DNA from: Prevotella sp.
Lineage (GTDB): Bacteria; Bacteroidota; Bacteroidia; Bacteroidales; Dysgonomonadaceae
Assembly (NCBI GenBank): GCA_031285625.1
Contig: JAITVV010000070.1
Coordinates: 32,001-96,000 of the forward strand
Direction: 5' to 3'
Length of the DNA stretch: 64,000 nucleotides
Shown: one piece after another, positions 4,542 to 31,598 of the stretch
Numbering within the stretch: the first letter of the stretch is position 1
Layout of the letters: each line of letters opens with the position of its first letter
Made by a program: the position numbers and the translations under genes
Notes under the pieces: generated by a model
Seen by the model: only the letters and a program-made list of their open reading frames with translations
Databases searched by the model: none
What the model was told of the DNA's origin: nothing

Positions 4542-6086
4542 TTATTCCGGATGTATTAGCAAATTCGGCTGATCCGAATATACTATATAATCCCATGATC
4601 GTAAGAAGTAATCATTATGAGCATCAACTTCAACTTTTATTTTATGCTTACCCTTAGGTAACTGATATTTCCAAAATAAATCATGCCTCCTGTATTTGAA
4701 ATCCGTTGGAAAAACGGATGTTTCGACTTTTTCCCCATCAATATACAATGAAGCTGTCAATTCTCCCTGTTCAGCACCGTTTCTTTTAATACCGGCATCG
4801 CCTCTCAAAGCAAAACCTGTACCATCTATCTCGAACTCGATAGTCCTGATATCATAATTGTGATAATTTATCCTACTTATAGGGAACATACCTTCAAAAC
4901 TTTGCTCATATTTTACAGTCTGAGGTTTTTGTACCTGAATGATAACGTTATCCCCATCAATCCTACCATTATTTCTTTCTATCATTTTCAGGGCATGTTC
5001 AAAACTAATGTCATATACCTTGTTTAATGACATATTGGTATATTTGAAGTTAATATCTTCTGCTCCGGTCAGTCCTTTTTTCCAATATTCAGGAATGTTA
5101 TCATAACCATACATCACTCCAAGAATACCACCGGCTGATGCCGGATTGCAATCTGAGTCCTGTCCGGCACGGGTTGATATTTCCAATGTGCGGGTATAGT
5201 TTCCTTTTCCGTAGAGTAGGCCTAGCACTACATAGGCCGCATTTATCCGGGCATCGATATTAAGGGCAGTAAAAACTCCCTCCGGGCATCCTATATCATC
5301 ACTATGGCCTTTTTGTAATAAGAGCCATGCCTGATGCCAATCGTCAGGATATTCTTTGTGCCATTTAATCACATCGGCAATACATTTATAAAATTTACTT
5401 TCTGTCGGAATAGTTTTTAAAGCCTCATTAACAATGAATTCAATATCATCCGATATAAAAGCCAGTGTATACATAGCTCCTATGTAAACTCCACCATACC
5501 AACCATCACCATAATTCATGATATGTCCTACTCTGTCACTTATCTCGGAGGCTGAATTTGTCATCCCGGGATTCATAAGTCCTGCAAAATCTGCTTCGAT
5601 CTGATAATCAATGTCATCAGCATGCGGATTGTTTAGCCAATGTCCAGGATCTTTAACACCATGCATTATATTATATCTTGCTGCCTGATTAGCATGCCAT
5701 AAATTGTAATCGGCATATGCAAAAGAATGTGCAAAAGAATCTACCGGAGCATCCATCCCTACTCTATCCAAGACCTCGACAAAGGTCAGGTCCATATAAA
5801 TATCATCAAAAAGATCGGGCCAACTATCCATAAGTTCTTTTACGTAACCTTCATGATAAGGTATAGGTTGAAAATCCTGAATAAATGTCCCATTATATTT
5901 AAACTCGGTATGACTGCCAAATGACACACCTATGGCTTGTCCTGCCCATCCACCTTTTATTTTATCATATAGCTGATTTTTTGAAAACGTTATTTTTTCA
6001 GGTAACAGTATCTCTTTTTTATCTGAATTACACGAATACTGGATAATACAAAACAAGACAATAAATATATTGAGATAATATTTCAT
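4542..6086 (-). CDS. ADP-ribosylglycohydrolase family lipoprotein
   Basis: DKIKGGWAGQAIG, DDIYMD, DDIDYQIE and GQDSDCN motifs. Likely start MKYYLNIF at 6086 gives a lipobox QYS-C (ORF track start 6155 is probably too long). Confidence 0.85.
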   Translation of the reverse strand: MKYYLNIFIVLFCIIQYSCNSDKKEILLPEKITFSKNQLYDKIKGGWAGQAIGVSFGSHTEFKYNGTFIQDFQPIPYHEGYVKELMDSWPDLFDDIYMDLTFVEVLDRVGMDAPVDSFAHSFAYADYNLWHANQAARYNIMHGVKDPGHWLNNPHADDIDYQIEADFAGLMNPGMTNSASEISDRVGHIMNYGDGWYGGVYIGAMYTLAFISDDIEFIVNEALKTIPTESKFYKCIADVIKWHKEYPDDWHQAWLLLQKGHSDDIGCPEGVFTALNIDARINAAYVVLGLLYGKGNYTRTLEISTRAGQDSDCNPASAGGILGVMYGYDNIPEYWKKGLTGAEDINFKYTNMSLNKVYDISFEHALKMIERNNGRIDGDNVIIQVQKPQTVKYEQSFEGMFPISRINYHNYDIRTIEFEIDGTGFALRGDAGIKRNGAEQGELTASLYIDGEKVETSVFPTDFKYRRHDLFWKYQLPKGKHKIKVEVDAHNDYFLRSWDYIVYSDQPNLLIHPE

Positions 6087-6171
6087 TTTATATTCTTTAA
6101 TAAATGGTATACAAAGCATTATGTATTGGCCTGCCCCATATACAGACCAATACATAAAAAATTACAATAAA

Positions 6172-7965
6172 TCAATTTTTAGCACCAGACCATCCCGGGT
6201 TTTGAACAAAGGTGTCTGGGTTTTTATTTACTTCTTCTTGATGGAAAGGCCACAAATAGTGCTTAGGAGCATCAAAAACACGGTTTTCTACCCAAGTCCG
6301 TTTAAAGAAATTATCATCACGTGCATTAATATCCATACCATGAACTGCCTTTACCTGATCGCTTATCTTCCAGCGGTTGCAGTCGAAATAGCGATGTGTT
6401 TCAAGAGCTAATTCTACCTGGCGTTCGTGTCTTATTCTCTCTCTCATTTGATCCTTCGTCAGTCCTGTTTTCAAATTAGGCAAGCCGGCCCGTGTACGGA
6501 TCATATTCATATATTTGTATACATCACTAACCGGCCCCGAAGCCTCGTTCAGTGCTTCCGCATAGTTTAGATATATTTCAGCCATACGGAAATAATTCCA
6601 TGTTTTTTTAACAAATATACCCTTTGGCAGATCTACACCATTCTCATCTAAAAACTTACGCATCAGATAACCGGTGGTTGAGTAGTCCGGGCCGCCCCCA
6701 CGTCCGTCAGGTGCTCCCATGCGGAAGTCGATTTGACGACCACGCCAATGAGAGCCTGTATATGTAACCGTTGCATAAAAGCGCGGCTCGCGTTCAACAA
6801 ACATATTAAATGTATTTTCAGGATAATATCCCTTCGGGTGTGCCTCAGCTTTAAAGCCTTCTTCCAAATATCCTGATTCAGGATTAATGATTGGGCTACC
6901 ATCGGCATTATATCCCAAAATCGGAGTTTTCCCATTAGCCATTTCATATGCATCCACGAGCTCCTGAGTAGGACATAAGCCTGACCAACCGCCTAGGCTG
7001 AGAGGTCCTGCTGCGCGCTCCATTTGATCGTAGAATTCCATATTCTTAGCAAAAATTATTTCCTTATTCCAGTGTTCTGTAAATAAGTAGCGATAGTTAT
7101 CCAATGGGTCGCCCGATTCGGCATAGTATAATCCATAACCGCCAGCCTCCATTTCTTCAATACATTTTTTTGTATAGTCGGCAGCTATTTTCCAACGTTC
7201 GGCATCATAAGCTGTTGGGAACAGGTGATTGCCCTCCTTATCGGTAAAATTTGCATAGTCTGGGTTACCATTCCACAAAGGGCTTGCCCTGTATAGCAAT
7301 AGTCTTGACTTCAGCGCCATAGCGGCAGCCTTAGTTGCACGTCCGTACCTGTCGGATCCCTCTTTCATATTTAGGTAAGTTGTAGCTCTGTCGCACTCAT
7401 TGGCTATAAAATCCACACATTGATCCAGCGGCATACGGATAGTTGTTTCCGCAAAATTGTCGTTGGTCTCGAATACCCTTTCATAGATATGCGTCGGTCC
7501 ATAGATGCGTATCAGTTGGAAGTGAAAAAAAGCGCGTAAAAAAATGGCTTCACCAATCCAACCCTGACGTTTTTGTTCGTCCATTGGTACTTTATCTACA
7601 TTGGCGAGAAATATATTGGTCTTTCTGATTCCCTGATAGGCCATATTAGAAACATCTCTTAATACATTATCCGGAGTCCACGAGCCATTATTCATGAAAT
7701 AGGCAAAACAGTTGGTGTAGGGATAATCCAGTTCATCGGCCGCGCCTACAAATGGGTTTTGACCCCAGTCGTTTGTAAAATTAAGTTCCCACGGAGTGTT
7801 CCAGTAGGTGGATGATAAAAATTGCTCCGCATAATATTCATTTGAAAATACGGCATCAAGATCCAGATCCTCATCGGGTGCTTTCTCCAGATAATCCTCA
7901 CAGGAAGTGCCCATTCCCAGTAATATCATCAGCAAAATGCTGTATAGTATACTATTACGTTTCAT
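6172..7965 (-). CDS. SusD/RagB family nutrient-binding outer membrane lipoprotein
   Basis: Lipobox TS-C-EDYLE; GEAIFLRAFFHF, GRATK, FRMAEIYLNYAEA, ERQVELALE.HRYFD, QNPGW. Confidence 0.95.
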   Translation of the reverse strand: MKRNSILYSILLMILLGMGTSCEDYLEKAPDEDLDLDAVFSNEYYAEQFLSSTYWNTPWELNFTNDWGQNPFVGAADELDYPYTNCFAYFMNNGSWTPDNVLRDVSNMAYQGIRKTNIFLANVDKVPMDEQKRQGWIGEAIFLRAFFHFQLIRIYGPTHIYERVFETNDNFAETTIRMPLDQCVDFIANECDRATTYLNMKEGSDRYGRATKAAAMALKSRLLLYRASPLWNGNPDYANFTDKEGNHLFPTAYDAERWKIAADYTKKCIEEMEAGGYGLYYAESGDPLDNYRYLFTEHWNKEIIFAKNMEFYDQMERAAGPLSLGGWSGLCPTQELVDAYEMANGKTPILGYNADGSPIINPESGYLEEGFKAEAHPKGYYPENTFNMFVEREPRFYATVTYTGSHWRGRQIDFRMGAPDGRGGGPDYSTTGYLMRKFLDENGVDLPKGIFVKKTWNYFRMAEIYLNYAEALNEASGPVSDVYKYMNMIRTRAGLPNLKTGLTKDQMRERIRHERQVELALETHRYFDCNRWKISDQVKAVHGMDINARDDNFFKRTWVENRVFDAPKHYLWPFHQEEVNKNPDTFVQNPGWSGAKN

Positions 7966-7997
7966 ATCTATTATAAGTTTAGTTATTTTTGTTTTTC

Positions 7998-10900
7998 TTA
8001 AAAATCTACTGAAAGCCCGAAGTTGATTGCCCGTTGGATAGGATACCAGTTATCTGATTCCGGATCAATTGTGTTATTTATCTTATCCCAGGTAATAAGG
8101 TTAGTACCATTGGCAAATACCCTGATATTCTTCATTTTCAGTTTGCTCATCACTTTCTTTGGCAGGGTATAGCCTATCTCCATATTTTTCAGGCGAATAA
8201 AGCTGGCATCTTTTTGCCATACAGTCGAACGTCTCATGCTCTGTGGGTTATTTCCGTCTGTAACCACCGGGTACTTAGCCGAAGCAGCCGTTTCAGGTGT
8301 CCATCGGTTGTCGTAAACTTCATTAAATACGTTGAAGAATCCCATCCCCATTTCGAATGGATAAAAAGTGCGGCCTTCAAACCACAAACTTGTACGGGCA
8401 GATCCTGTAAAGAAAACACTGAAGTCGAATCCTTTATACTCAATAGTACCACCAAATCCAAAAACTAATTCCGGGTCACGGGTGTAACCGATCGCTGTCT
8501 GGTCATTACTATCGATAATACCATCACCATTCACATCCTTGTATTTCACATCACCCGGTATAGGACGTCCACCAAGCAAGGTCTGGTCGTACCAGTTGTC
8601 AATATCTTCTTCGGACTGGAAAAATCCTTCAGCTACAAGCCCGAACGGTTGGCCGATAGAATGGCCTATTTCGGATAAATTATCCCAAAGTGGTTTTGCC
8701 TTATCATTCTCTATTACCTCGTTGTGTGCATAGGTTATATTACCTCGGAAAGAATAGAAAAATCCGGAAGACGTACGATCTTTAAATTCCAACTGAGCAT
8801 CAAAACCACTGTTTTTGGCCTCACCCAAGTTACCCCATAAGGAACTTGCAGAAATGAAACCCGCACCAGTTGGCACTGACGAACGCTGCATTAGAATACC
8901 TTTTCTTCTTTCGTGGAAGAAATCGGTCTGCAAAGAGATACGATCTTTCCAAAGCCCGAGATCAAACCCAGCATTTGTTTTGACTGCTGTTTCCCAAGTC
9001 ACATCATTATATCCAATCTTAGTCTCTATTATGCCGGGCCACAAGACTTGCGACTCACCAAAATAAGCTCTCTGATCCGATCCACCATCCAGTTTTGTCA
9101 GATACAAGAAGCGGTCTCCACCAATCTGATCGTTACCAACTTCACCATGTGAAAATCTGAGTTTCAGATTGCTTACCACTTTATCGTTCCAAAACGATTC
9201 GCCGGAAACTAACCAGCCGACAGATATAGCAGGGAAAAAGCCCATCTGTTTTCCTTTCGGAAAGTTTTCAGAACCATTATAGCCAGCATTAAACTCGACG
9301 AAATATTTCAGTCCATAATCATAGGTAGCACGCATCGCAAGTCCCTGGCTACGATATGGCAAATTCAAAAGAGAGGTTCCGGCCGATAAGTCATCATACT
9401 GCCTGCGATTGAAGAGCAACATACCCGAAACGGTATGCATCTTGTTGAACGTGCGTTGGTAATTAGCCGATACATCCCAATAGACAGACTGATTTGTATT
9501 TCGTGTTGCATTGTTGAATCCCATGGCCTGAGCTTCGCGAACAATATTGTACTGGTCTTCACCAGATTCATCTTTTCCCAGATATTGTTTTATTCCGAAC
9601 GTTTTATATCGTAATGCTTTATTTGCATGATAATAATCGAACGAAAAATGTCCTTTTACCGACAAGCCTTTTGTTATCAGGCGCGACAAATCCCATGTAA
9701 GTCCGGCTGTAGACTGTATAGTCGTCAAACGTTCGTCGGAATACCCGGTCTCGGTAGACTGCCCCCATGGATTGGAACCGATATAGGTAGGTATGCCTGC
9801 TATACTGCCGTCGGGATTGGTTTTAGGGAAAATGATAGGGCCTGTATCGCGCAAACCGTCGAAGATACCGGCAGCACCAGCACCAGGATAAGTACGGTCG
9901 TCAATAATACCGCCAACACCTAATTCTACGATTAAATCTCTGCTCAGGTTTATATCCACATTGGAACGATAATTGTATCGCGCTACCCCTGCATTCGTAT
10001 TATGTTCATTAGCGGGATTAGTCCTATATATACCTGTTTGATTAGAATATCCAAGGTTTACATAGTAACGTACGATTTCACTACCGCCGGTTACACTCAG
10101 GTTATTTATCGTTTGAAATGAATTCGGTTTCAGAACTTCGTCTATCCAATCCACATTGGGATAGAGGTAAGGGTCGGATCCTGTGCGGAATTTCTCCAGC
10201 TCTTCGGATGTCCAGCGGGCAGGTTTGCCCACATTTGCCAATCCCTCGTTCATTAATGAGGCATATTGGTAACCGTCTATATAATTCCTTTGAGACAAGC
10301 TAGTAAGAATAGCCATCTCTGTACGGAACGAAACCTGAGGTTTTCCTTGTTTACCTCTCTTGGTGGTAATCAAGATAACCCCATTGGCCCCTTTTACCCC
10401 ATACACAGCTGTCGCTGAGGCATCTTTAAGCACTGATAAGCTTTCTACCTCGTCCGGGTTGACAGTACCTATAGAACGTTCTATACCATCTACCAATACC
10501 AACGGATTTTTTGCACCCCATGTTGCCATACCGCGGATATATATATTTGCAGCATCAAATCCCGGTTCACCGGATGTTTGTCGGGTAATAATCCCCGGCA
10601 TACGCCCCGACAGGGCATTGGGTAATGAAGTAGTTGCAGTTCGTTTAATTTCGGCGGGCGCAATATTCGAAATCGAGCCAACAACACTCACTTTCTTTTG
10701 GGTACCATAACCCACTACAACCACCTCATCCATCAGATTCTGGTCGCTGCTCATTGTTATGTTTATTTCTGTTCTTCCTCTTAATGGTTCTTCCGTCGTT
10801 ACCAATCCGACATAGCTGTAAACTATTATTGCATCGGTAGGCACATCAAACGAATATCGTCCTTCAGCATCGGTAAAAGTACCTACAACGGTACCTTTCA

Positions 10901-11117
10901 CCGTTACGGTCACTCCAGGTAGAATGTCTCCTAAGTCATCCTTTACAATCCCGGATACTTTTATTTTACCTCCATCATTATTCTGAGCATTTACCATTAC
11001 AGGCAATAATGCCAACGAAAATATGATGCAGAATATCACTTTATGCAGATCGTGCATCTTCCATCTTCCAATAAGTACATTGGTTCCGGACTTTCTGTGA
11101 GTAGTTCGTTTTTTCAT
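7998..11117 (-). CDS. SusC/RagA family TonB-dependent transporter
   Basis: DEVVVVGYGTQKK, LKDASATAVYGVKGANGVILITTKRG plug motif, C-terminal F. Confidence 0.96.
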   Translation of the reverse strand: MKKRTTHRKSGTNVLIGRWKMHDLHKVIFCIIFSLALLPVMVNAQNNDGGKIKVSGIVKDDLGDILPGVTVTVKGTVVGTFTDAEGRYSFDVPTDAIIVYSYVGLVTTEEPLRGRTEINITMSSDQNLMDEVVVVGYGTQKKVSVVGSISNIAPAEIKRTATTSLPNALSGRMPGIITRQTSGEPGFDAANIYIRGMATWGAKNPLVLVDGIERSIGTVNPDEVESLSVLKDASATAVYGVKGANGVILITTKRGKQGKPQVSFRTEMAILTSLSQRNYIDGYQYASLMNEGLANVGKPARWTSEELEKFRTGSDPYLYPNVDWIDEVLKPNSFQTINNLSVTGGSEIVRYYVNLGYSNQTGIYRTNPANEHNTNAGVARYNYRSNVDINLSRDLIVELGVGGIIDDRTYPGAGAAGIFDGLRDTGPIIFPKTNPDGSIAGIPTYIGSNPWGQSTETGYSDERLTTIQSTAGLTWDLSRLITKGLSVKGHFSFDYYHANKALRYKTFGIKQYLGKDESGEDQYNIVREAQAMGFNNATRNTNQSVYWDVSANYQRTFNKMHTVSGMLLFNRRQYDDLSAGTSLLNLPYRSQGLAMRATYDYGLKYFVEFNAGYNGSENFPKGKQMGFFPAISVGWLVSGESFWNDKVVSNLKLRFSHGEVGNDQIGGDRFLYLTKLDGGSDQRAYFGESQVLWPGIIETKIGYNDVTWETAVKTNAGFDLGLWKDRISLQTDFFHERRKGILMQRSSVPTGAGFISASSLWGNLGEAKNSGFDAQLEFKDRTSSGFFYSFRGNITYAHNEVIENDKAKPLWDNLSEIGHSIGQPFGLVAEGFFQSEEDIDNWYDQTLLGGRPIPGDVKYKDVNGDGIIDSNDQTAIGYTRDPELVFGFGGTIEYKGFDFSVFFTGSARTSLWFEGRTFYPFEMGMGFFNVFNEVYDNRWTPETAASAKYPVVTDGNNPQSMRRSTVWQKDASFIRLKNMEIGYTLPKKVMSKLKMKNIRVFANGTNLITWDKINNTIDPESDNWYPIQRAINFGLSVDF

Positions 11118-11288
11118 AGATTTTGGTTTTTATACAATGTATTTTTTAATAGATTATAGTTTATTAATTTCTAAACGCAGAGTTGAGTATATCGGATAAC
11201 TTATCTGGGCTTCATTGTATTACTTTAAATCAGGGGTAGGATTTGGGTAAAACAATTGTGAATTCCATGTATAATAGATTATGTAAAT

Positions 11289-11296
11289 CAAAAATA
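11289..11296 (-). promoter_or_regulatory. Candidate -7 element of the susC promoter
   Basis: TATTTTTG on minus strand ~170 bp upstream of susC. Confidence 0.4.
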
Positions 11297-11382
11297 AAAA
11301 CTATCTGATAGTCCTATTTCTCAATTTTATATGGTTTTTATATTTTCAAATAATTATATATAAAGTTCGTTCGTGTTTAAAA

Positions 11383-11409
11383 ATTTGAATAACAGACATT
11401 TATTCAAAT
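11383..11409. promoter_or_regulatory. Candidate operator palindrome in divergent susC/rbsK region
   Basis: ATTTGAATAA-N7-TTATTCAAAT perfect 10-bp inverted repeat (AT-rich, could be chance). Confidence 0.35.
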
Positions 11410-11673
11410 ATTATTATCATGCTTTTATATAAATCAGATAGGAAAACACAAGCTTGGAAATATGCCTAATGAGTAGATCTTTAAAAAAATTAGAATAATT
11501 TTTTGATTCAAAAAATATATGAAGGGAATCAACTTGTTAAAAAAGGGCTTTAATTTGCAACAATATTAAAAACACAAAAAATAGTATCACAGATTTTTTT
11601 AATTAAGAATATTATTCCTTATATTTAGATGTAATCCCAGATAATCTATTAGAGTTTAATAGATATTCTTATA

Positions 11674-12609
11674 ATGAAGACACGTATATCTAACAGTACT
11701 ATGAAAGCACCAAAAATTGTCGTAATCGGTAGTTCCAACACCGATATGATTGTAAAAGCAAAGCAGCTGCCTGTTCCCGGAGAAACTATTTTAGGGGAGA
11801 ATTTCATTATAAACCCCGGAGGTAAAGGTGCCAATCAGGCTATAGCTGCCAAAAGATTGGGGGGAGATATTACCTTTATAACTAAAGTGGGCAATGATCT
11901 TTTTGGGATGCAGGCGTTTGAAATTTATCGTTCAGAATATATAAATACCGGTTATGTATTTAAGGACCCGGATAATCCATCAGGTGTTGCACTTATCTCT
12001 GTAGATTCGATGGGCGAAAATTGTATAATCGTTGCCGGGGGATCAAACATGCGACTTTCACCGGAAGATATAGATAAAGCTGAAGAAGCTATTAAAGAAT
12101 GTGACTTGGTTCTGATACAACTGGAGATTCCATTGGAAACTGTGGAATACGCTGTAGATCTGGCTCATCGCCATGGTAAAAAGGTTATATTGAACCCTGC
12201 ACCTGCAACATCTTTAAGTAATGACCTATTAAAAAAGTTGTATGCCATTCTTCCTAATAGAATAGAGGCACAGATGCTTTCGGGAATCCAGGTTACAGAT
12301 GAAAAATCAGCTTATGAAGCCTCTCATGCTATAAGCAAAAAAGGAATTGATAATGTAGTGATTACACTCGGTAAAGCAGGTGCGTTTGTGAAAGAGGATG
12401 ATAACTATCGGATGATACCTGCAAAAGAAGTTGAAACAATTGATACAACCGGGGCAGGAGATGTTTTCTGTGGCGCTATCAGCGTATATTTATCTGAAGG
12501 ATATTCATTAATGGATTCTGTAGCATTTGCAAATATGGCTGCATCAATATCTGTAACCAGAATAGGTGCGCAAAGTGCGATTCCTTTCAGACGGGAAGTA
12601 TTTTTATAA
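11674..12609 (+). CDS. rbsK: Ribokinase (PfkB family), paralog 1
   Basis: GSSNTD, PGGKGANQA, LNPAPA, DTTGAGDVF; start may be 11701 (MKAPKIVV). Confidence 0.9.
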   Translation: MKTRISNSTMKAPKIVVIGSSNTDMIVKAKQLPVPGETILGENFIINPGGKGANQAIAAKRLGGDITFITKVGNDLFGMQAFEIYRSEYINTGYVFKDPDNPSGVALISVDSMGENCIIVAGGSNMRLSPEDIDKAEEAIKECDLVLIQLEIPLETVEYAVDLAHRHGKKVILNPAPATSLSNDLLKKLYAILPNRIEAQMLSGIQVTDEKSAYEASHAISKKGIDNVVITLGKAGAFVKEDDNYRMIPAKEVETIDTTGAGDVFCGAISVYLSEGYSLMDSVAFANMAASISVTRIGAQSAIPFRREVFL

Positions 12610-12613
12610 AAGT

Positions 12614-13768: not shown

Positions 13769-13782
13769 TATAATTAAAGGTA

Positions 13783-15134: not shown

Positions 15135-15156
15135 ATCATTCTGTTTTTGTTAGTTC

Positions 15157-17274: not shown

Positions 17275-17310
17275 ATATAATCTATTTTATTATGGTTTCA
17301 GGTTGTTTAA

Positions 17311-21127: not shown

Positions 21128-21135
21128 CAAATATA
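21128..21135 (-). promoter_or_regulatory. -7 element for the corrinoid methyltransferase cassette
   Basis: TATATTTG on minus strand ~117 bp upstream of 21011. Confidence 0.5.
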
Positions 21136-22926: not shown

Positions 22927-23095
22927 TTCTCATCTTTTTAGTTGAATTTACAAAATGTAGATTTATATAAAAATGCAGATCAACGTATATATATAAAATT
23001 AATATTCAATTAATTACAAATAATTTTTATAATAAAACCAAATTTGAATTATATAAATAGCAATTTTTTAGTCATTATCTAGTAAATACTCACTA

Positions 23096-23103
23096 TATAT
23101 TTG
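23096..23103 (+). promoter_or_regulatory. -7 element for the rbsK2 operon
   Basis: TATATTTG 93 bp upstream of ATG 23196. Confidence 0.5.
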
Positions 23104-23195
23104 ATATTAATTAAATCAATATATGAAAATGCGATGAAAAATCCACATAAAAATCGCAATACTCATCATTAAGAAACATAATTATTTACTAATAC

Positions 23196-24127: not shown

Positions 24128-26764
24128 ATGCGTAGTTTTTTATTTTTTATTTTAGTCATACTGGTTTCAATGAAGCCATTTGCTGTATTCCCAGGAGAGC
24201 AAAACCAAAATCTGTCTCTGTCCGGAATGGTAACGGCATCATCTAATGCCGGAAAGCAATATCATGAGAAGAATGTTGCCGATAATAACATGGAAACTTT
24301 ATGGAAGGCAAAAAAGTCAAATGCAGAACAATGGTTGCTTATCGATCTGAAGAGTAATTATGCATTAAATAAGATAAGCCAGACTTTTGGAAATACGGCT
24401 GTCTGGAAATTCAAGATTGAAGGTTCTGTAGATAAACAGAATTGGACAATGCTGGTTGATAAAACAAAGGGCGCCTCAGGAATATCATTTGCCGAAAGTG
24501 TGTCCGGGGTTTACCGTTATGTACGGTTAACAATATCCGGATCCGGTAACAATGATATTGCTTCATCAGCCGAATTTGCAATCTATGGAACCGATAAGGG
24601 TACTAATATTGCCTTGGGTAAATATTTTAACACTCATGTGCGACAAGAAGGCTTCGAACCGGAAAAAGCACTTGATGGCGATATTGCGACATATTGGAGA
24701 GCATCGAATACCTATCCGCAGACGTTGACTTTAGATTTGAGAAGAATGTGCATGATTACCGGGGTAAGACAGGTGTTTAAGCAGCATGACATATGGAAAT
24801 TTAAAATAGAAGGATCAAAGGACAACCAGCAATGGGATAGCCTGTTAGATAACTCACAAGGCGATAGGGGATTCGATTTCTCTACTTCTGTTTCGGGTGA
24901 CTACCATTTTATCCGGTTAACCATTCTGGAATCTTCATCAGGGTATATTGCCAATAGTTGCGAATTTTGTGTCTACGGATTCGAATCGGACAATAATGAA
25001 GTAAAGCCGCTCCGTAAGAATCTGGCTTATAATACAGCAGCATCTACTTCTTCATTCGACCGGAACGACTATTCGCAATATAAAGCTTTGGATGGTAATG
25101 AGCATACATTCTGGCGCGCCGACGATACATCAATGCCGCAATGGCTATTGGTTGATTTAGGAAACTCATGCCAAATCGATGAAATAAGCCAGGTATTTAC
25201 AAATGAGGATACATGGAAGTTTAAAATTGAGGCTTCGAACGATAAAGATAACTGGACAGAAATAGCTGATGAAACGGCCGGTTATACAGGTTCCCGTTAC
25301 TCAAAGGCTATGAATGGCTATTATCGTTACGTAAAGATTACTATAACAGATGCTGAAAATAAAAACCGGGCCGGAAGTAAGGAATTAGCTATATATGGTA
25401 CGGGATCTCCCAAGACAGCAAAATGGTGGGAAGATAAGTCCGGAATGTCACGCTATTATCCAAAATTCTATAAGCAGACTTTTCCATCCATTATCGACAG
25501 TTTAGATATTATTCAGGCACAGGGATATAATATTCTCGAATTCTCAGCTCCTTACGAGGGCGATCCTGAAGTATGGGGAGGTTTGGGAGCTACCAACAAT
25601 TATGCTATCGATCCTTCGATAGGCACAATGGAAGATTTTGAACGCTTACTCAGGGAAGCTCACGCCCGTGACATGAAGGTTATCTTCTTCGGAAATGTAG
25701 GTTATTGCTGGCATGAAGCTCCTTTTTTCCAAAAAGCATGTGACGATGAGAGGAATAAAGTAAACAGCAAAGAACGCAAATGGTTCCATTTTAGCCAGAC
25801 AAAACATAGCGACAGTTGGTTCTGGAGCGAGAGAGCCCAGGCATATTACTATTCATTCTGGGGTAATTCTGATGGTGCAGAAGGGCGTATACCTAATTAT
25901 AATTTCAACAATCAGGAATGGCGCGATGAATGTGTGAACTATCTTAATTTTTGGTCGAATAAAGGTGTTGACGGACTATTGCTTGATGCTCCCGGAGCCT
26001 ATGATGGTATCAATGATGCCATTATAGAAGAAAATATAGTGAAGGTTCTTAACCGTCATGGTATAGTTACTAATGCTGAAGGTTCAGGGGATGTATATCA
26101 TTGGATGCACCGTTTCGGATTCAACAGTATACAGGGATTTGATGTATATGGCTGGGGTGGAGGTAAGCGAAGTGATATACTTGCCGGGCGAAAGACAAAT
26201 ACCCCTCAGGGACTGGATAAAAAACTAAAGGAGTACAGAGACATGGCAAATGCTTTTAATGGTGTTACCATAACTCCTCCGATGTGGGAAATACCTGCTA
26301 CTGAAGATGAACGGATATTTGAAGTTGCTTATCTGACAACTTTAGGAACCATCTTTGTAAATCATTACGGGGATCATCACCGTGACTATATCGCACAATT
26401 TATTATGAGCAAATGGCCTCTTGAAAAGCAAAAAGAATTCTATGATCTTGTTCGCACCCAGAATAGCTATATTGGACTGGCTCCTTACGGACAACGCATG
26501 TGTTTGCCTACAAATGACGATGAAAAATATACGGCATTCAAGAGAACCAATAAGGATGGAAAAGTTTCGGCACTCGTTATCTTCAACTTTCAGGATGCAG
26601 AAAGTACTATATCTGTCGATCTTAGAAACTCTGGGATAGACCATTCACACACACCTATCGATTTGTTGACAGGGAAAGCGGCCAAACCGATCACTTCCGA
26701 TAAATATGCAGTTTCTGTACCTGCCTATGGATATCTGATTTTGGGTGTGGAAAACGAAATGTAA
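24128..26764 (+). CDS. Secreted protein: three F5/8 type C (CBM32-like) domains plus atypical GH13-like TIM barrel
   Basis: Three repeats of W...DL...Q.F...WKFKIE.S.D...W...G.Y..V..TI; then IDPSIGTMEDFERLLREAHARDMKVI, GVDGLLLDAP, NAEG. Confidence 0.8.
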   Translation: MRSFLFFILVILVSMKPFAVFPGEQNQNLSLSGMVTASSNAGKQYHEKNVADNNMETLWKAKKSNAEQWLLIDLKSNYALNKISQTFGNTAVWKFKIEGSVDKQNWTMLVDKTKGASGISFAESVSGVYRYVRLTISGSGNNDIASSAEFAIYGTDKGTNIALGKYFNTHVRQEGFEPEKALDGDIATYWRASNTYPQTLTLDLRRMCMITGVRQVFKQHDIWKFKIEGSKDNQQWDSLLDNSQGDRGFDFSTSVSGDYHFIRLTILESSSGYIANSCEFCVYGFESDNNEVKPLRKNLAYNTAASTSSFDRNDYSQYKALDGNEHTFWRADDTSMPQWLLVDLGNSCQIDEISQVFTNEDTWKFKIEASNDKDNWTEIADETAGYTGSRYSKAMNGYYRYVKITITDAENKNRAGSKELAIYGTGSPKTAKWWEDKSGMSRYYPKFYKQTFPSIIDSLDIIQAQGYNILEFSAPYEGDPEVWGGLGATNNYAIDPSIGTMEDFERLLREAHARDMKVIFFGNVGYCWHEAPFFQKACDDERNKVNSKERKWFHFSQTKHSDSWFWSERAQAYYYSFWGNSDGAEGRIPNYNFNNQEWRDECVNYLNFWSNKGVDGLLLDAPGAYDGINDAIIEENIVKVLNRHGIVTNAEGSGDVYHWMHRFGFNSIQGFDVYGWGGGKRSDILAGRKTNTPQGLDKKLKEYRDMANAFNGVTITPPMWEIPATEDERIFEVAYLTTLGTIFVNHYGDHHRDYIAQFIMSKWPLEKQKEFYDLVRTQNSYIGLAPYGQRMCLPTNDDEKYTAFKRTNKDGKVSALVIFNFQDAESTISVDLRNSGIDHSHTPIDLLTGKAAKPITSDKYAVSVPAYGYLILGVENEM

Positions 26765-27013: not shown

Positions 27014-28024
27014 ATGTTTATTGTAGAAAGCTACCCTTTAGCAATATTATTTTGTGTAATAACAATGCTGTGTTGGGGTTCATGGGGAAATACACAAAAG
27101 TTAGCCGCTAAAACATGGCGATACGAGCTGTTTTATTGGGACTACGTGATTGGCATTGTAATTTTATCCGTAATACTTGGCTTCACACTTGGAAGTTTTG
27201 GTGAAGAGGGTAGAAGCTTTATCGAAGACCTGAAGCAAGTAAGCGGATCTATGGTTTTAAGTGCCATTATCGGAGGTATTGTGTTCAATGCTGCTAATAT
27301 ATTATTGTCTGCGTCTATTTCGCTGGCAGGTATGTCTGTCGCATTCCCATTAGGAGTAGGGCTGGCTTTGGTTTTGGGCGTATTCATTAATTATTTAAAT
27401 ACACCAAAAGGAGATCCGGTTATTTTATTTCTGGGTGTAGCTCTGATTGTAATTGCCATAATATTTAACGGCATTGCTTCCGGGAAAATGACTAAAAGCA
27501 GCGAAGAGATGAAAACTAGGAAAAAAGGAATAATCATCGCTGTTTGTGCAGGTATCCTTATGTCATTCTTCTACAGATTTGTGGCACGTGCTATGGATTT
27601 GGATAATTTCGAAAATCCTACTCCGGGCATGATGACTCCTTATTCTGCATTTTTTGTATTCTCGCTTGGAATATTAGCAAGTAACTTCCTGTTTAATACA
27701 TTGGTTATGAAGAAACCATTTGTTGGTGGCCCTGTCACTTATTCCGAATATTTCAAAGGTAATGCTAAAACACACATGGTAGGAATATTGGGCGGTTTGA
27801 TATGGGGGTTGGGTACCGCTTTCAGTTATATAGCAGCAGGCAAGGCCGGAGCTCCCATATCATATGCATTAGGTCAGGGAGCACCTATGATCGCCGCACT
27901 GTGGGGAGTCTTTGTCTGGAACGAATTTAAAGGAGCTAATAAGACAGTTAATATATTACTTACATGCATGTTTATTCTGTTTATATCGGGACTGGGACTT
28001 ATTGTGGTTTCAGGAGGAAATTAG
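27014..28024 (+). CDS. DMT-superfamily (GRP/ureide permease-like) sugar transporter, RusT-like
   Basis: TMLCWGSWGNTQKL, RYELFYWDY, SYALGQGAPMIAALWGVFVW.EF; ~10 TM segments. Confidence 0.85.
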   Translation: MFIVESYPLAILFCVITMLCWGSWGNTQKLAAKTWRYELFYWDYVIGIVILSVILGFTLGSFGEEGRSFIEDLKQVSGSMVLSAIIGGIVFNAANILLSASISLAGMSVAFPLGVGLALVLGVFINYLNTPKGDPVILFLGVALIVIAIIFNGIASGKMTKSSEEMKTRKKGIIIAVCAGILMSFFYRFVARAMDLDNFENPTPGMMTPYSAFFVFSLGILASNFLFNTLVMKKPFVGGPVTYSEYFKGNAKTHMVGILGGLIWGLGTAFSYIAAGKAGAPISYALGQGAPMIAALWGVFVWNEFKGANKTVNILLTCMFILFISGLGLIVVSGGN

Positions 28025-28163: not shown

Positions 28164-29342
28164 ATGAAAAGAAAAATTCTTACGCATCTCTTTCTTATCA
28201 TATTTTTATTGGTAGGCAACTCTGTTTTTTCTCAAGATTTTGCTGGGGATCTCAGTAGCCTGATCACTATAAAAAAAGATATGAAAAGCCGCCGTATCAG
28301 CACGGCAGACCCAACAGGTAACAATCATGACAATACAGGGTTAATCAAGATTGGAGATAAGAAGGTAATCGAGATTGAAGGATCTGGAATCATCAATCAT
28401 ATCTGGATGACGATTGCTCCCTGGGATATGAGGCGAAATGATATTATTTTACGCATATATTGGGATGGAAATGACTATCCTTCAGTTGAATCACCGCTGG
28501 CTGCATTCTTTGGAAACGGCTGGGACGAAAAATATAATTATGCATCTTTGCCGCTGGCAGTAGGACCTGCCGACGGAACAGGTATGGTATCTTATTTTCA
28601 GATGCCATTTAAAAACGGAGCTAAAATAGAAATTGAAAATCAGGCAGATCGAAATATCGACTGTATATATTTCTATATAGATTATGTGGAAATGAATGAG
28701 CTACCTGATTATATAGGTCGTTTCCATGCATGGTACAATCATAAATTAACAGAAGCATTGCCAGAAGGCGAGACCGAATGGGGGGTTGTCGGCACAATGG
28801 AAAACAATGTAGATGGTGCCAGAAATTATGTTTTCATCGATACTAAGGGAAAAGGACATTTTGTAGGTATCAACTATTATGTACATTGCCCTTCTCCGAT
28901 GTGGTATGGCGAAGGAGACGATATGTTTTTTATAGATGGTGAAAAACGGGCATCGATTTTAGGTACGGGAACCGAAGACTTTTTCAATACCTCGTGGTGT
29001 CCCAAAACACTTTTCGCTCATCCTTATTACGGGTATGCCAGAGTAAATAATGAGATTGGCTGGCTGGGAAGGACACATGTATACAGGTTTTTTGTTTCAG
29101 ATCCAATATATTTTGACAAATCGCTAAAAGGTACTATCGAGCATGGTCATAACAATAATCTGACACTCGATATCGGTACTGTAGCATACTGGTACCAAAG
29201 TGAAGCGGGCATATTACCTCCGGCACCAACGAAAGAACAACGTGCTCCTAAAGCATTCATTATCGATCGTGATATACATAAGTGGCGTCATGAATGGAGA
29301 AAGAGTAAAGGAAATAGTTCTACATTGTGGGGTAATGAATAA
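28164..29342 (+). CDS. GH172 (DUF2961) glycoside hydrolase, signal peptide
   Basis: G.G.INHIWMT, LRIYWDG, PSVESPL..FFG, WYGEGDD and GTGTEDFFN (catalytic Glu motifs), IEHGHNN. Confidence 0.9.
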   Translation: MKRKILTHLFLIIFLLVGNSVFSQDFAGDLSSLITIKKDMKSRRISTADPTGNNHDNTGLIKIGDKKVIEIEGSGIINHIWMTIAPWDMRRNDIILRIYWDGNDYPSVESPLAAFFGNGWDEKYNYASLPLAVGPADGTGMVSYFQMPFKNGAKIEIENQADRNIDCIYFYIDYVEMNELPDYIGRFHAWYNHKLTEALPEGETEWGVVGTMENNVDGARNYVFIDTKGKGHFVGINYYVHCPSPMWYGEGDDMFFIDGEKRASILGTGTEDFFNTSWCPKTLFAHPYYGYARVNNEIGWLGRTHVYRFFVSDPIYFDKSLKGTIEHGHNNNLTLDIGTVAYWYQSEAGILPPAPTKEQRAPKAFIIDRDIHKWRHEWRKSKGNSSTLWGNE

Positions 29343-29469: not shown

Positions 29470-29507
29470 GAGAATTGAACGTAAAATAACTATATCAAAT
29501 TTTAAAG

Positions 29508-31598
29508 ATGAAATATCGGTTTGCAGTCAGTCTGTCTATTGTCTTAATCACTTTATTTTCATTATCCTGTGATAATGAAAATAAAGAAATAACCTTTCTT
29601 TCCTTATTGCATGAGATGACTGATAGAGAGTCTACCAGCAAATATCCCGATCCGTACTATACAGCTAAGCAGTTTAGCAGCTATGATCGTGCTTCGGATA
29701 CTGCCAGAATAGGATCTTTCTACTGGTTTGCAAACTGGGATTTTAGCCAGTTTTTACGTACGGAAGAAAATAATGGACGAAGGGAATTTGTATTGTTCGA
29801 TGCGGAGGGTCCGGGAGCTGTTGTAAGATTCTGGATAACTGTAGCCCATTATAATGACAATGGTATACTACGGTTCTATCTGGATAAGTCGGAAAAACCT
29901 GTGATAGAAGGTGAAGTACTATCTCTTATTAGTGGTGGAAAACTGGTAGGTGATCCTTTGTCGGTATCTGTTTCCGAAACAACACCCTACAAACAGAGAG
30001 GGCATAATTTGTACCTGCCCATTCCTTATTCACGACATTGTAAGATAACATATGAAACGCCCGGAATTATTGAAGCAGGAAGAAAACCTCCAGGTGAAAA
30101 TTTTTTCTATAGTGTTGCATATAGGACTTATGAAGAAGGTACTGACGTAAAAAGCTTTACAATGGAAGATCTGTTGCTCTATTCCGAAGATATAAAACTA
30201 ACGCAGCAAAAACTTAAATCGGAACCTGATTTTTCCAATTTTACCAAAACAGAATCTGAAACTAAAAATATAAAAAGCAAGGATTCTGAAAATATGGTTT
30301 CTTTAGCAGGTACAAAAGCAATCAAAGGTATCTCTGTTAAACTCACTGCCGAAGATTACGAACAAGCTTTGCGTTCGACAATACTTAAGATATCGTTTGA
30401 TGGAAACCAGTCGGTATGGGCACCGGTAGGTGACTTTTTTGCAACAGGAAACCGTCTTTCTCCTTACCGTTCTTTTTATACTACTGTAACAGGAGATTCG
30501 ATATTAGACTGTTATTGGGTGATGCCATTTAAAGACAAATGTGAAATTTCTCTGGAAAACTTAAACGGTAAACCTGTACAGGCATCACTTACAGTCTATT
30601 CATCGAATACCAAATGGGATAAAAACAGTATGTATTTCGGTGCCGGATGGACAGAATATAACCGTAAGCACACGGGCGAAAAAAGGAGTATAGATGGATC
30701 GTATGGAGCCAGTGATATTAATTTTGTTACACTTAATGGCAAAGGTATTTATGTGGGAGATGCTGTAACCATCTTCAACCCGATAGGTGACTGGTGGGGC
30801 GAAGGTGATGAGAAAGTATATGTGGATGGTGAAAGTTTTCCCTCGTTTTTCGGAACAGGGACAGAAGACTATTATGGTTATGCATGGTGTCTGCCAAACT
30901 TTTTTGAGCATCCGTTTATTGGCCAACCTGATGGGCAGGGTGCATACCAACCCGGCCATGTCTCGAACCTGCGCTATAGGGGATTGGATGGGATCACTTT
31001 TGATAAATCCATTATATTTGATATGGAATTCTGGCATCAGGGTGGTACATATATAAACTATGCTGTGACGACTTATTGGTACATGTTGCCCGGAGGTAAA
31101 ACCAACCGAAAGGAAGAGACTGCATTAGCTTCCTTGCCTATTGTAAAACATAAAAATGAACTGGTTAGCAATGTTCCTGACGAAAATGGGATCATTGAAG
31201 GCGAATACCTGAATATTAAAGTTCAGGGCGGTATGGAAAGAACCCAAAGCCTTATTGACTTTGAATGGCGCAACGGTACTCAATTCATCTGGCGCGAAGC
31301 TAATACGGGCGATATTGCATGGCTCGGGTTTGTAGCAAAAGATGAAGGTGTATATCAAATTAACTTTGAAATGACAACTGCTACAGACTATGGAAGGTTT
31401 GCACTTTACATTAACGATAAATTGGTAGAACAGTCATTTAATGCATATAGCTCTGTATTGCAGATGAAAACCCTTATTTTGAAAAATATACAGCTTAGAA
31501 AAGGAGAGAATATATTAAAGGTGGTACAATTACAGAGAGATCCGAAGGCTGTAAATACATTATTCGGACTGGATTATATGACTCTTATTAAAAAATAA
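29508..31598 (+). CDS. GH172 (DUF2961) lipoprotein with C-terminal CBM-like domain
   Basis: Lipobox SLS-C; SSYDR, GPGAVVRFWIT, WWGEGDE, GTGTEDYYG; C-terminal EGE...DYG...FGLDY beta-sandwich. Confidence 0.85.
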   Translation: MKYRFAVSLSIVLITLFSLSCDNENKEITFLSLLHEMTDRESTSKYPDPYYTAKQFSSYDRASDTARIGSFYWFANWDFSQFLRTEENNGRREFVLFDAEGPGAVVRFWITVAHYNDNGILRFYLDKSEKPVIEGEVLSLISGGKLVGDPLSVSVSETTPYKQRGHNLYLPIPYSRHCKITYETPGIIEAGRKPPGENFFYSVAYRTYEEGTDVKSFTMEDLLLYSEDIKLTQQKLKSEPDFSNFTKTESETKNIKSKDSENMVSLAGTKAIKGISVKLTAEDYEQALRSTILKISFDGNQSVWAPVGDFFATGNRLSPYRSFYTTVTGDSILDCYWVMPFKDKCEISLENLNGKPVQASLTVYSSNTKWDKNSMYFGAGWTEYNRKHTGEKRSIDGSYGASDINFVTLNGKGIYVGDAVTIFNPIGDWWGEGDEKVYVDGESFPSFFGTGTEDYYGYAWCLPNFFEHPFIGQPDGQGAYQPGHVSNLRYRGLDGITFDKSIIFDMEFWHQGGTYINYAVTTYWYMLPGGKTNRKEETALASLPIVKHKNELVSNVPDENGIIEGEYLNIKVQGGMERTQSLIDFEWRNGTQFIWREANTGDIAWLGFVAKDEGVYQINFEMTTATDYGRFALYINDKLVEQSFNAYSSVLQMKTLILKNIQLRKGENILKVVQLQRDPKAVNTLFGLDYMTLIKK

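Follow-up and report, generated by a model that had tools for sequence, protein, structure and literature searches.

Within the window, the 64,000-nt stretch of DNA analysed here, we found a gut-type Bacteroidales PUL of the Rus type (positions 4542-31598) that carries one additional operon, whose components and sequence motifs are those of a corrinoid methyl-transfer system. We tentatively read this operon as a B12-dependent system that demethylates a glycan-derived sugar, which is the best of the explanations considered, although our confidence in it falls a little short of even. We prefer this reading because orthologues of two of the operon's proteins, UD1 and UD3, have GH38-type enzymes, sugar transporters and LacI regulators as neighbors elsewhere but, outside of three rus-linked loci, never rus genes (0/24 metagenome loci and 0/8 genome loci). 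The narrower proposal of an earlier, sequence-only reading, that the substrate is a methylated pentofuranoside, is not specifically supported by these neighborhoods. If demethylation of a glycan-derived sugar is correct, the operon would provide an oxygen-free removal of methyl groups from sugars, a reaction so far undescribed for carbohydrates.

All 17 genes named by the sequence-only reading were recovered in place from the listing of open reading frames and by family profiles (Pfam and NCBIfam, applied with the families' cut-offs). On the minus strand are an ADP-ribosylglycohydrolase-family gene (ARH, 4542-6155; PF03747, E 1.7e-34), whose product is likely a lipoprotein if an internal Met (…IIQYSC) is the translation start, and genes for a SusD-like outer-membrane lipoprotein (6172-7965; PF07980 and PF14322) and a SusC-like TonB-dependent transporter (7998-11117; Plug and CarbopepD_reg_2 domains). 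The plus strand carries two ribokinases, the rusK-like K1 (11674-12609) and K2 (23196-24092), which score 381.3 and 369.3 bits against TIGR02152 (cut-off 299.65), and a RusR-like protein of the BT2802 family (21373-22926; NF058569, 625.5 bits, cut-off 550), a putative regulator with no match in a Pfam profile search. Further along the same strand are a GH13-like enzyme with a signal peptide and three F5/8-type-C domains (24128-26764; PF00754, PF22633, PF00128 and PF16657), a RusT-like permease of the RhaT/GlcU type (27014-28024; PF07168, PF06800 and TIGR00776) and two GH172 (DUF2961) enzymes matching PF11175, the secreted GH172a (28164-29342; E 8.9e-81) and the lipoprotein GH172b (29508-31598; E 1.3e-62; N-terminus …LFSLSC). 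Orthologues of ARH (63-68% identity; L200, L201, L003, L004 and L006) and of the permease (72-78%; L200, L201 and L004) also reside in rus-like loci. As had been noted from the sequence, a nucleoside hydrolase is missing; no Pfam family of the IU type was matched within positions 4542-31598.

The additional operon spans 8.4 kb between rusR and rusK1, with all seven genes on the minus strand and separated by 15-86 nt or, in one case, overlapping by 25 nt. It is transcribed divergently from rusR, as the sequence-only reading had described, across a gap of 322 bp; a search for a shared operator found none. In order of transcription, the genes encode UD1 (19956-21050; PF01208, the URO-D family, E 3e-38), GH38L (17360-19912; PF01074, 36 bits, cut-off 25), UD2 (16270-17274; PF01208, E 2.4e-54), UD3 (15157-16218; PF01208, E 1.9e-19), the corrinoid carrier CoP (14463-15134; B12-binding PF02310 and B12-binding_2 PF02607), the stand-alone MetH-activation-domain-like protein RAM (13783-14487; PF02965, Met_synt_B12, 42.5 bits, cut-off 25) and an MFS transporter (12614-13768; PF07690). 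RNA-library contigs contain the cassette sequence, which demonstrates its presence and says nothing about its expression.

Signal peptides divide these products between compartments: GH38L has one, as do ARH, both GH172 enzymes and the GH13-like enzyme, while UD1, UD2, UD3, CoP and RAM do not. GH38L had been counted as part of the methyltransferase cassette; its gene does lie inside the operon, but it encodes a secreted lipoprotein (signal sequence ending in …LFLFFSC) and not a member of the cytoplasmic methyltransferase set. Its closest ESM-Atlas clusters are all GH38N, and a profile built on 18 sequences had no PDB match. The MFS transporter weakly matches the sugar-type (gluP/fucP/TsgA) group, with an E-value of 7e-13 to TIGR01272 (gluP) and a score far below that model's cut-off, and has orthologues in loci L002 (66% identity) and L219 (40%).

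The motifs of the cytoplasmic proteins agree with the corrinoid system that had been proposed. CoP scores 164.6 bits against TIGR02370, under the cut-off of 215.3, and its DLHDIGK (DxHxxG) motif is invariant across 13 sequences. RAM has the motif RYSPGY and, in its C-terminal part, CxxCx4C, and its homologues adjoin corrinoid-protein genes in 15/20 loci; it is presumed to be a SAM-dependent reactivator of Co(II). The three URO-D-family proteins, presumed to be cytoplasmic methyltransferases, are closest to the NCBIfam models MtaA, CmuA and MtbA, all under cut-off (for UD2 and TIGR01463, 139 bits versus 235). UD2 keeps the zinc triad H-x-C…C, its HNCGN…SGCD aligning with HICGN…PGCG of the MtaA structure 4ay7, and presumably unloads CH3-Co(III). 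This triad is typical of thiol/selenol chemistry, a property that counts against sugar demethylation.

UD1 and UD3 each belong to a widespread clade of their own in which the metal ligands are altered (support of 100 for each, with 11 and 13 rows, respectively). UD1 reads H255-N-D257 … D339-H340, invariant in 11 orthologues, and has relatives in 405 clusters at E<=1e-40. UD3, from a family with 3300 matches, reads H242-x-C244 … N326; the second Cys is lost and N326 is invariant in 17 sequences. In a quickly built tree, 58 URO-D proteins fall into two groups (SH-aLRT 97 on each side), with UD2 in the MtaA-like group and UD1 and UD3 in the other, together with the ~415-aa proteins that adjoin corrinoid proteins. 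Both are presumed to be substrate-side methyltransferases.

Comparison with relatives locates the insertion. In four loci from the same genus (L198-L201), whose RusR proteins are 54-60% identical to that of the window, rusR directly abuts a K1 orthologue (72-73% identity) and there are neither methyltransferase genes nor GH38L; the 8.4 kb operon fills exactly this gap. The linkage to rus genes is not unique to the window, as the methyltransferase set adjoins rus-like/GH38L PULs in two other Bacteroidales MAGs with different gene orders: UD1-CoP2-GH38L-GH13L-UD2-UD3-CoP-RAM-MFS-RusR-K1 in L002, and UD2-CoP-UD1-UD3-MFS in G424, divergent from SusC-SusD-GH172-GH13L-GH38L-GH13L-K2-ARH-RusT. In favor of the demethylation reading, UD1 and UD3 behave as a pair across the five genomes reached from loci L001-L004 and L006, with both in G424 and G428 and neither found in G425-G427. 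The cassette is nevertheless rare and patchy, and no orthologue-level match to UD3 was obtained among 24 same-genus genomes. Among 80 loci with GH38L relatives, the cassette is present in one, and in a second after the flank was extended; in most, the sequence retrieved around the gene shows no methyltransferase genes. Counting against the demethylation reading, GH38L also occurs in rus-like PULs (L003 and L006) from genomes without detected UD1 or UD3.

Outside of the rus-linked loci, UD1 orthologues have GH38-type genes nearby in 7/18 loci longer than 4 kb, together with transporters of the Sugar_tr, SSF and MFS families, a LacI regulator and an epimerase of the AGE family, and UD3 orthologues adjoin GH92, GH172, GH29, GH123 and GH95-like genes. 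In the 4.84 Mb host genome, which has only three GH38N genes, all five URO-D genes adjoin its only two stand-alone corrinoid proteins; therefore, the grouping of these genes is not due to chance.

From the observed gene content, motifs, compartments, insertion site and recurrence, we infer the following scheme, which assigns parts to UD1, UD2 and UD3 and a direction and an acceptor to the methyl group; its most inferential element is the substrate. A Rus-type PUL would have gained, between rusR and rusK1, one operon that combines a secreted glycosidase-like lipoprotein, a sugar-type importer and a cytoplasmic three-component corrinoid system. The secreted enzymes (GH38L, the GH13-like enzyme, the two GH172s and ARH) would act on the target glycan and free a methylated sugar, which the MFS transporter would import. 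UD1 and/or UD3 would then transfer the sugar's methyl group to Co(I) of CoP, and the MtaA-like zinc enzyme UD2 would unload CH3-Co(III), with a thiol or perhaps tetrahydrofolate as the acceptor. Cobalt oxidised to Co(II) would be repaired by RAM with SAM and a reductant, and the demethylated sugar would enter the kinase-fed catabolism of the PUL. The characterised methyl donors of URO-D-type enzymes are thioethers, chloromethane and aryl ethers, and we know of no precedent for the cleavage of a sugar (alkyl) methyl ether by a corrinoid methyltransferase.

Several other mechanisms could account for a corrinoid operon at this position. The system could remove S- or Se-methyl groups from 5-methylthioribose, methylthioadenosine, other methylthio-sugars or small methyl sulfides and selenides, leaving the thiol and salvaging the methyl group, as modelled on methylthiol:CoM systems and on the role proposed for type 1 mlp gene clusters. 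UD2's zinc site is the one that MtaA uses in thiol activation, the nearest profile models of all three URO-D proteins belong to the MtaA/CmuA/MtbA group, the nearby ribokinases and ARH would suit a ribose-based donor, and a homocysteine S-methyltransferase gene sits beside the corrinoid protein in 10/20 other Bacteroidales loci that have one. The Cys ligands, however, are replaced in UD1 and incomplete in UD3, the neighbors of their orthologues are the glycosidase, Sugar_tr and LacI genes described above with no sulfur- or selenium-metabolism gene among those scanned, and the RACE-type activase that defines type 1 clusters was not found in the host genome. Removal of S- or Se-methyl groups would also give the operon's secreted GH38L no role, and we consider it unlikely.

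A second explanation is that the cassette is an independent accessory module, a chance neighbor of the PUL that takes its methyl groups from some free small molecule, to supply methionine synthesis, for instance. Its rarity would fit, as would the many non-PUL contexts in which corrinoid-protein/URO-D/RAM modules occur with their own transporters and regulators, including a compact LacI-UD3-CoP-UD1 unit with an MFS gene in a Parabacteroides-type locus (L159) flanked by LPS genes. It is hard to reconcile with a PUL-type glycosidase inside the operon, with adjacency to rus-like/GH38L PULs in three lineages and three gene orders, with occupation of the rusR-adjacent position held by rusK1 in relatives, or with the host's second corrinoid module, which also lies within a SusC/D locus. 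Independence from the PUL is accordingly improbable.

It is slightly more doubtful still that the operon encodes an aryl O-demethylase, like Odm, Vdm and Mtv of acetogens, acting on methoxylated phenolic aglycones or feruloylated sugars freed by the PUL's glycosidases. Phenolate is a good leaving group and this chemistry is well precedented, and a CoP-UD2-RAM set among GH78 rhamnosidases, GH31 and GH141 in a same-genus genome (L137) would suit flavonoid rhamnoglucosides. Against it, the operon's transporter resembles sugar transporters, UD1/UD3 orthologues neighbor Sugar_tr, LacI and GH38-, GH92- and GH29-type genes, Pfam revealed no aromatic-catabolism genes in the window locus, and the genome has neither a RACE activase nor a pterin-binding MT2 beyond the MetH module. 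Finally, it is very improbable that UD1 and UD3 are URO-D-fold enzymes with another sugar activity, such as a decarboxylase, leaving UD2, CoP and RAM as the whole corrinoid system: UD3's URO-D match is weak (residues 100-346 only; PDB match E 0.0013) and its orthologues lie distant from any corrinoid protein in 8/8 sampled genomes, which also counts against demethylation, but a corrinoid-protein gene lies immediately beside UD1 or UD3 in the window, L002, L159, L174 and L219, both group with corrinoid-adjacent proteins in the tree, and a stand-alone corrinoid protein is present in 7/8 genomes with a UD3 orthologue versus 66/392 others, related genomes not being independent in this count.

Demethylation of a glycan-derived sugar would set the locus apart from each known system that it resembles, and, in agreement with the sequence-only reading, searches of the literature turned up no account of such a system in Bacteroidota. 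As described in the main text of Glowacki et al. (bioRxiv 10.1101/574913), the Bacteroides thetaiotaomicron rus PUL and its variants share with the window rusC/rusD homologues, an upstream RusR, two ribokinases, a RusT-like permease and a variable enzyme set that includes an ADP-ribosylglycohydrolase. Compared to the B. thetaiotaomicron PUL, the window locus lacks the nucleoside hydrolase, has GH38-like, GH13-like and GH172 enzymes, and adds the corrinoid operon; the terms corrinoid, cobalamin, uroporphyrinogen and methyltransferase do not occur in that main text.

The three-component systems of methanogens (MtaABC and MtsAB) and acetogens (Odm/Vdm/Mtv) likewise use URO-D-fold enzymes and group the gene of a DxHxxG corrinoid protein with those of two methyltransferases, one acting on the substrate and one of the MtaA zinc type. 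Unlike them, the window's operon belongs to a fermentative Bacteroidales, lies inside a PUL, itself encodes a sugar-type transporter and a secreted glycosidase, has non-Cys metal ligands in UD1 and UD3, lacks a dedicated folate methyltransferase, and would be reactivated by a MetH-activation-like protein instead of a RACE/RamA ATPase. The type 1 mlp clusters, compared by their description in the main text of Kountz & Balskus (PMC10418091), also combine several MtaA-like URO-D paralogues with one corrinoid protein and no folate methylase in anaerobic hosts; they carry a Ram/RACE activase, are 73% Firmicutes, and are tied to selenium/sulfur traits, with proposed roles in methyl-S/Se metabolism that include a methylthioadenosine-dismantling route. 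That main text has no occurrence of Bacteroid-, sugar, glycoside or carbohydrate.

MetH and its split or rewired versions, such as the one coupling glycine betaine demethylation to methionine synthesis (PMC12478193), share with the cassette both a module that binds B12 and an activation domain of the MetH type. The window's cassette has URO-D proteins in place of the folate and homocysteine modules, which in the host genome are found only in MetH, FolP aside; the stand-alone homocysteine S-methyltransferases in relatives' corrinoid loci are a MetH-like trait. A parallel in proposed purpose comes from marine bacteria, where, according to PMC6292453 and PMC10033563, cytochrome P450 demethylases encoded among glycan-degrading genes act on the 6-O-methyl-D-galactose of porphyran and clear a methyl ether that blocks catabolism. 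Their reaction is oxidative, depends on oxygen and releases formaldehyde, whereas the operon described here would transfer the methyl group to cobalamin without oxygen.

On its minus strand, the Rus-type PUL encodes ARH, an ADP-ribosylglycohydrolase-family protein (4542-6155, from the ORF and Pfam calls), SusD (6172-7965, with SusD_RagB and SusD-like_3 domains) and SusC (7998-11117, with Plug and CarbopepD_reg_2 domains), followed on the plus strand by ribokinase K1 (11674-12609), which matches TIGR02152 with 381.3 bits against a cut-off of 299.65. The BT2802/RusR-family protein (21373-22926, plus strand) matches NF058569 over residues 1-503 with 625.5 bits against a cut-off of 550. Further plus-strand genes encode ribokinase K2 (TIGR02152, 369.3 bits against 299.65), a GH13-like enzyme, GH13L, with three F5/8-C domains (Pfam), a RhaT/GlcU-type permease that is the RusT candidate (Pfam and NCBIfam) and two DUF2961/GH172 proteins, GH172a and GH172b (Pfam). 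The RusT candidate has orthologues in other rus-like loci that are 72-78% identical. The sequence-only reading had named the genes of this locus, and the ORF listing, Pfam and NCBIfam place all of them where it did; it had also reported that a nucleoside hydrolase is absent, in agreement with a Pfam scan of the locus that matched no such family. A D-arabinan PUL was considered and rejected, as the region has two GH172s but no Pfam match to DUF4185 or to an isomerase family; PUL42 of Dysgonomonas gadei is described as combining GH172 and DUF4185 genes with a fucose isomerase (PMC10115798).

The gap between rusR and rusK1 is occupied exactly by an 8.4 kb minus-strand operon, UD1-GH38L-UD2-UD3-CoP-RAM-MFS (12614-21050), whose genes are spaced by 15-86 nt or overlap by 25 nt in the ORF listing, and which is separated from the oppositely oriented RusR gene by 322 nt. 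It encodes three URO-D-family proteins, UD1 (19956-21050), UD2 (16270-17274) and UD3 (15157-16218); a GH38N-like lipoprotein, GH38L (17360-19912; PF01074 over residues 49-347, 36 bits against a cut-off of 25); a corrinoid protein, CoP (14463-15134; PF02310, 85.8 bits, and PF02607, 74.5 bits); a MetH-activation-like protein, RAM (13783-14487; PF02965, 42.5 bits against a cut-off of 25); and an MFS transporter (12614-13768) with weak NCBIfam matches to the sugar transporters gluP, fucP and TsgA. RusR-family proteins were found in 10 of 24 same-genus genomes. In the four of these whose RusR is 54-60% identical (L198-L201), rusR directly adjoins rusK1, either in the order RusR-K1-K2-SusC or with RusR divergent from K1-RusT-K2-ARH-SusC-SusD…GH172, and none of the four contains methyltransferase genes or GH38L. 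A search of 24 same-genus genomes yielded no UD3 match at orthologue level, the best match being 25% identical.

The adjacency of the cassette to a rus-like PUL recurs in three lineages with three gene orders. Among 80 loci kept out of 266 GH38L relatives, one alone, from a Bacteroidales MAG (L002), carries the whole set within the fetched flank, in the order UD1-CoP2-GH38L-GH13L-UD2-UD3-CoP-RAM-MFS-RusR-K1 and with proteins 54%-85% identical to those of the window. The genome of L004 carries UD2-CoP-UD1-UD3-MFS (40-72% identical to the window proteins), divergent from SusC-SusD-GH172-GH13L-GH38L-GH13L-K2-ARH-RusT, with a hybrid two-component regulator beyond and with its RAM homologues located elsewhere in the genome. 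Two further rus-like loci (L003 and L006) contain GH38L without UD1 or UD3; searches of their genomes and of that of L001, all of which may be incomplete, recovered neither protein.

In a corrinoid relay, a first methyltransferase (MT1) loads a corrinoid protein and a second (MT2) unloads it, with a reactivator in support. Judged by their motifs, the parts of the cassette fit this textbook relay. The DLHDIGK motif of CoP (DxHxxG) is invariant in 13 homologues. In an alignment with 4ay7, a solved structure of MtaA (E 1.8e-16), UD2 keeps HNCGN…SGCD opposite HICGN…PGCG, the H-x-C…C residues being the zinc ligands of MtaA; its score lies below the curated MtaA model cut-offs (139 vs 235). At the same site, UD1 has H255-N-D257 and D339-H340…H343-D344, invariant in 11 orthologues at 57-79% identity, and UD3 keeps H242-x-C244 with N326 at the position of the second Cys, invariant in 17 sequences. 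RAM bears RYSPGY, which fits the RxxxGY SAM motif of MetH, and a C-terminal CxxCx4C. We assign UD2 the putative role of the zinc enzyme that unloads the corrinoid protein, with UD1 and UD3 as putative enzymes of the substrate side. None of UD1, UD2, UD3, CoP and RAM has a signal peptide; GH38L (…LFLFFSC), ARH and GH172b are lipoprotein-like, and GH172a and GH13L have signal peptides.

The window's own genome (4.84 Mb, 94% complete) contains five URO-D genes, three in the cassette and two on contig C95 beside the only other stand-alone corrinoid protein; because all five lie beside the genome's two stand-alone corrinoid proteins, their clustering is not a matter of chance. The homocysteine-binding and pterin-binding methyltransferase modules of the genome are those of MetH, FolP aside, and PF00809 matches only MetH and FolP. 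No RACE/RamA-type activase (PF14574) was found in this 94% complete genome, while the control matched in Methanosarcina acetivorans; the MetH-type activation domain of RAM stands in place of such an activase. The second module (L156, G000:C95:62000-81999) comprises a 416-aa URO-D protein, a corrinoid protein 37-39% identical to CoP, a RAM and a UD2-type protein 59% identical to UD2, and lies 3′ of a SusC/SusD pair and an MFS gene of the same cluster, after which comes a GFO/IDH/MocA oxidoreductase.

We then compared 20 corrinoid loci, namely the 20 kb around 19 orthologues from other genomes and the own genome's second module. Of these, 17 contain URO-D genes and 15 contain RAM. A stand-alone homocysteine S-methyltransferase (PF02574) accompanies the corrinoid protein, URO-D and RAM in half of the loci (10/20; L138, L140-L143, L145, L148, L149, L154 and L155, all from other Bacteroidales genomes), an arrangement resembling a methionine synthase in which a URO-D enzyme has taken over from the folate module. 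Three further loci have a pterin-binding methyltransferase and MTHFR instead of PF02574. Many of the 20 loci have transporters and regulators of the AraC or LacI type, and some include glycoside hydrolases or SusC/D. In two of them, L137 (same-genus genome G181) and L138, genes for a corrinoid protein, UD2 (68% identical), RAM and an SSF transporter are surrounded by two GH78-type rhamnosidases, GH31, GH141 and a rhamnose-mutarotase-like gene. In L153-L155, genes for CobW-type GTPases, a metal chaperone family, directly adjoin the URO-D methyltransferase genes, which fits metal-dependent methyltransferases.

The UD3 family has 3300 matches at E<=0.001. Sampling 400 other genomes of the order gave UD3 orthologues of 59-80% identity in 8. 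Neither a corrinoid protein nor RAM or UD2 is encoded in the 4.6-20 kb fetched around these orthologues, which adjoin genes for GH92, GH172, DUF6786, Sugar_tr, a BNR protein, GH29, GH123, a GH95-like protein, a sulfatase and further URO-D paralogues. A stand-alone corrinoid protein is encoded elsewhere in 7 of these 8 genomes, compared with 66 of the 392 others, related genomes not being independent in this count. The UD1 family comprises 405 clusters at E<=1e-40, one of them named by its source as Parabacteroides sp. No rus gene is present in any of 24 metagenome loci with a UD1 orthologue; a UD3 orthologue accompanies UD1 in 7 of them, a corrinoid protein in 2 and RAM in 1. GH38-type genes were seen in 7 of the 18 UD1 loci that exceed 4 kb, the own genome having, for comparison, three GH38N genes in its 4.84 Mb. 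The genes around UD1 orthologues further include those for Sugar_tr, SSF and MFS transporters, a LacI regulator, an AGE-family epimerase and a GH127 protein.

The nearest ESM-Atlas clusters to GH38L all carry PF01074, and the Pfam scan gave no match in GH38L to the middle and C-terminal domains of GH38 (PF09261 and PF07748). A PDB profile search with 18 GH38L-family sequences yielded no match, leaving this family of ~800-850 aa proteins without a structural or biochemical description. Invariant His and Asp residues (H50, D55 and D60) lie close to its N-terminus. Its 266 relatives in genome_contigs span Bacteroidota, Planctomycetota, Verrucomicrobiota and Acidobacteriota, mostly the latter three, and weak UD1-like matches (22-29% identity) occur near GH38L in five distant loci (L038, L041, L043, L069 and L079).

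An Rfam gathering scan of the whole window gave 0 matches and hence no B12 riboswitch, and a search for a shared operator among 9-mers of 13 intergenic regions, from the window and related rus loci, recovered only uninformative AT-rich words. Within 11000-23500, promoter-like sites number 48 (shuffles, 51.8±7.4) and terminator-like sites 12 (shuffles, 7.3±2.6); those terminator-like sites that fall in the cassette are all inside ORFs except for one plus-strand hairpin in the UD3-UD2 spacer, and the scan gave no callable operon boundary. In that spacer, at 16237-16272, lies a ~31-nt element with the hairpin AGGTCACAGACCT, single-copy in the window, and short matches to it occur on many unrelated contigs in all four sequencing runs compared; it may be a dispersed intergenic repeat. 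Two RNA-seq libraries from one study (X2 and X3) and a run whose RNA origin is only guessed (X1) contain contigs 90-99% identical over the locus, a single 16.6 kb contig of X1 spanning 4542-20974 and contigs of X2 tiling nearly all of 4542-24092. As these matches are contigs, one of them running across convergent genes, neither transcription nor co-expression can be claimed from them. Elsewhere in the window, at 32706-33818 (plus strand), lies a release factor 2 gene with the classic programmed +1 frameshift site, an ordinary known feature consisting of AGGAGG and then CTT TGA C at ~32766-32772; because of the frameshift, the annotated ORF (32862-33818) lacks the N-terminus of the protein.

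We regard it as not far from an even prospect that the cassette is a functional PUL extension serving to demethylate a sugar derived from a glycan, because its operon includes a secreted glycosidase together with an importer of the sugar type, it is proximal to rusR, and its adjacency to rus-like PULs has survived rearrangement in three lineages. By comparison with MtaB and its zinc site, the His and Asp residues of UD1, which are hard ligands, would be apt for activating an ether oxygen through Lewis-acid chemistry. The sequence-only reading was right in kind when it tied B12-dependent demethylation to a Rus-type PUL, but the pentofuranose substrate that it proposed is without support: outside the three rus-linked loci, rus genes never accompany the methyltransferase genes, which have GH38-type enzymes and hexose-type transporters as their neighbours. 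We put forward more tentatively a joint reading in which UD1 and UD3 would be the first carbohydrate O-demethylases to depend on cobalamin, doing without oxygen what the P450 sugar demethylases do with it, and would belong to clades that are widespread in anaerobic and sediment Bacteroidota and also occur in human-gut Parabacteroides. With GH38-type partners they would make methylated glycans accessible, the methyl group would travel through the corrinoid protein to a thiol (homocysteine in related loci), and foraging would feed methionine and one-carbon metabolism in a B12-dependent manner.

Among the alternatives, S- or Se-methyl donors are unlikely substrates, with the zinc site of UD2 and the precedent of mlp clusters in their favor. 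It is doubtful that the cassette is a methyl-harvesting module that merely neighbors the PUL and is functionally unrelated to it. We consider aryl methyl ethers a slim prospect as substrates; the dedicated pterin-binding methylcorrinoid:tetrahydrofolate MT2 of the aromatic O-demethylases (Odm/Vdm/Mtv) is absent from the own genome. That UD1 and UD3 are not methyltransferases at all is very improbable, and their fold, the adjacency of corrinoid-protein genes in five loci and their tree position make them candidate substrate-specific MT1 enzymes; a quick tree of 58 URO-D proteins resolves two groups (SH-aLRT 97 on each side), one MtaA-like and including UD2, the other uniting the UD1 clade, the UD3 clade and corrinoid-adjacent proteins of ~415 aa.

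Sugar methyl ethers block catabolism, and the locus bears on how strict anaerobes in guts and sediments handle methylated sugars. If the cassette does demethylate glycan-derived sugars, it would define a new substrate class for B12-dependent methyltransferases, couple glycan foraging to methionine and one-carbon metabolism, and constitute a previously unrecognised B12-dependent trait in Bacteroidota, with relevance to gut corrinoid competition. Both clades, UD1 with 405 clusters and UD3 with 3300 matches, are large, and the locus offers a compact, testable entry point of seven genes, whose soluble proteins could be purified and followed in a simple UV-visible assay.

Full-text literature searches returned no description of a corrinoid methyltransferase encoded in a PUL of Bacteroidota or using a sugar methyl ether as substrate. 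The only enzymatic removal of sugar methyl ethers that they returned is by oxygen-dependent P450 enzymes of marine aerobes, and a 2026 paper on gut O-demethylation covers acetogen systems only, with no occurrence of 'Bacteroid'. The window locus has the RusR-family protein, two ribokinases and SusC/SusD pair of a Rus-type PUL. At least 70 rus configurations are reported, with 22 GH families and ADP-ribosylglycohydrolases, in a preprint whose main text makes no mention of cassette-type genes (bioRxiv 10.1101/574913). The nearest type of gene cluster, the type 1 mlp cluster, is described as mainly from Firmicutes, with RACE activases and proposed S or Se substrates (PMC10418091); the Ram/RACE protein of such clusters is absent from the window (Pfam) and from the own genome. 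Compared with a three-component corrinoid system, the cassette has the DxHxxG corrinoid protein and the MtaA-type H-x-C…C enzyme, but instead of the RACE/RamA activase it has a MetH-type domain.
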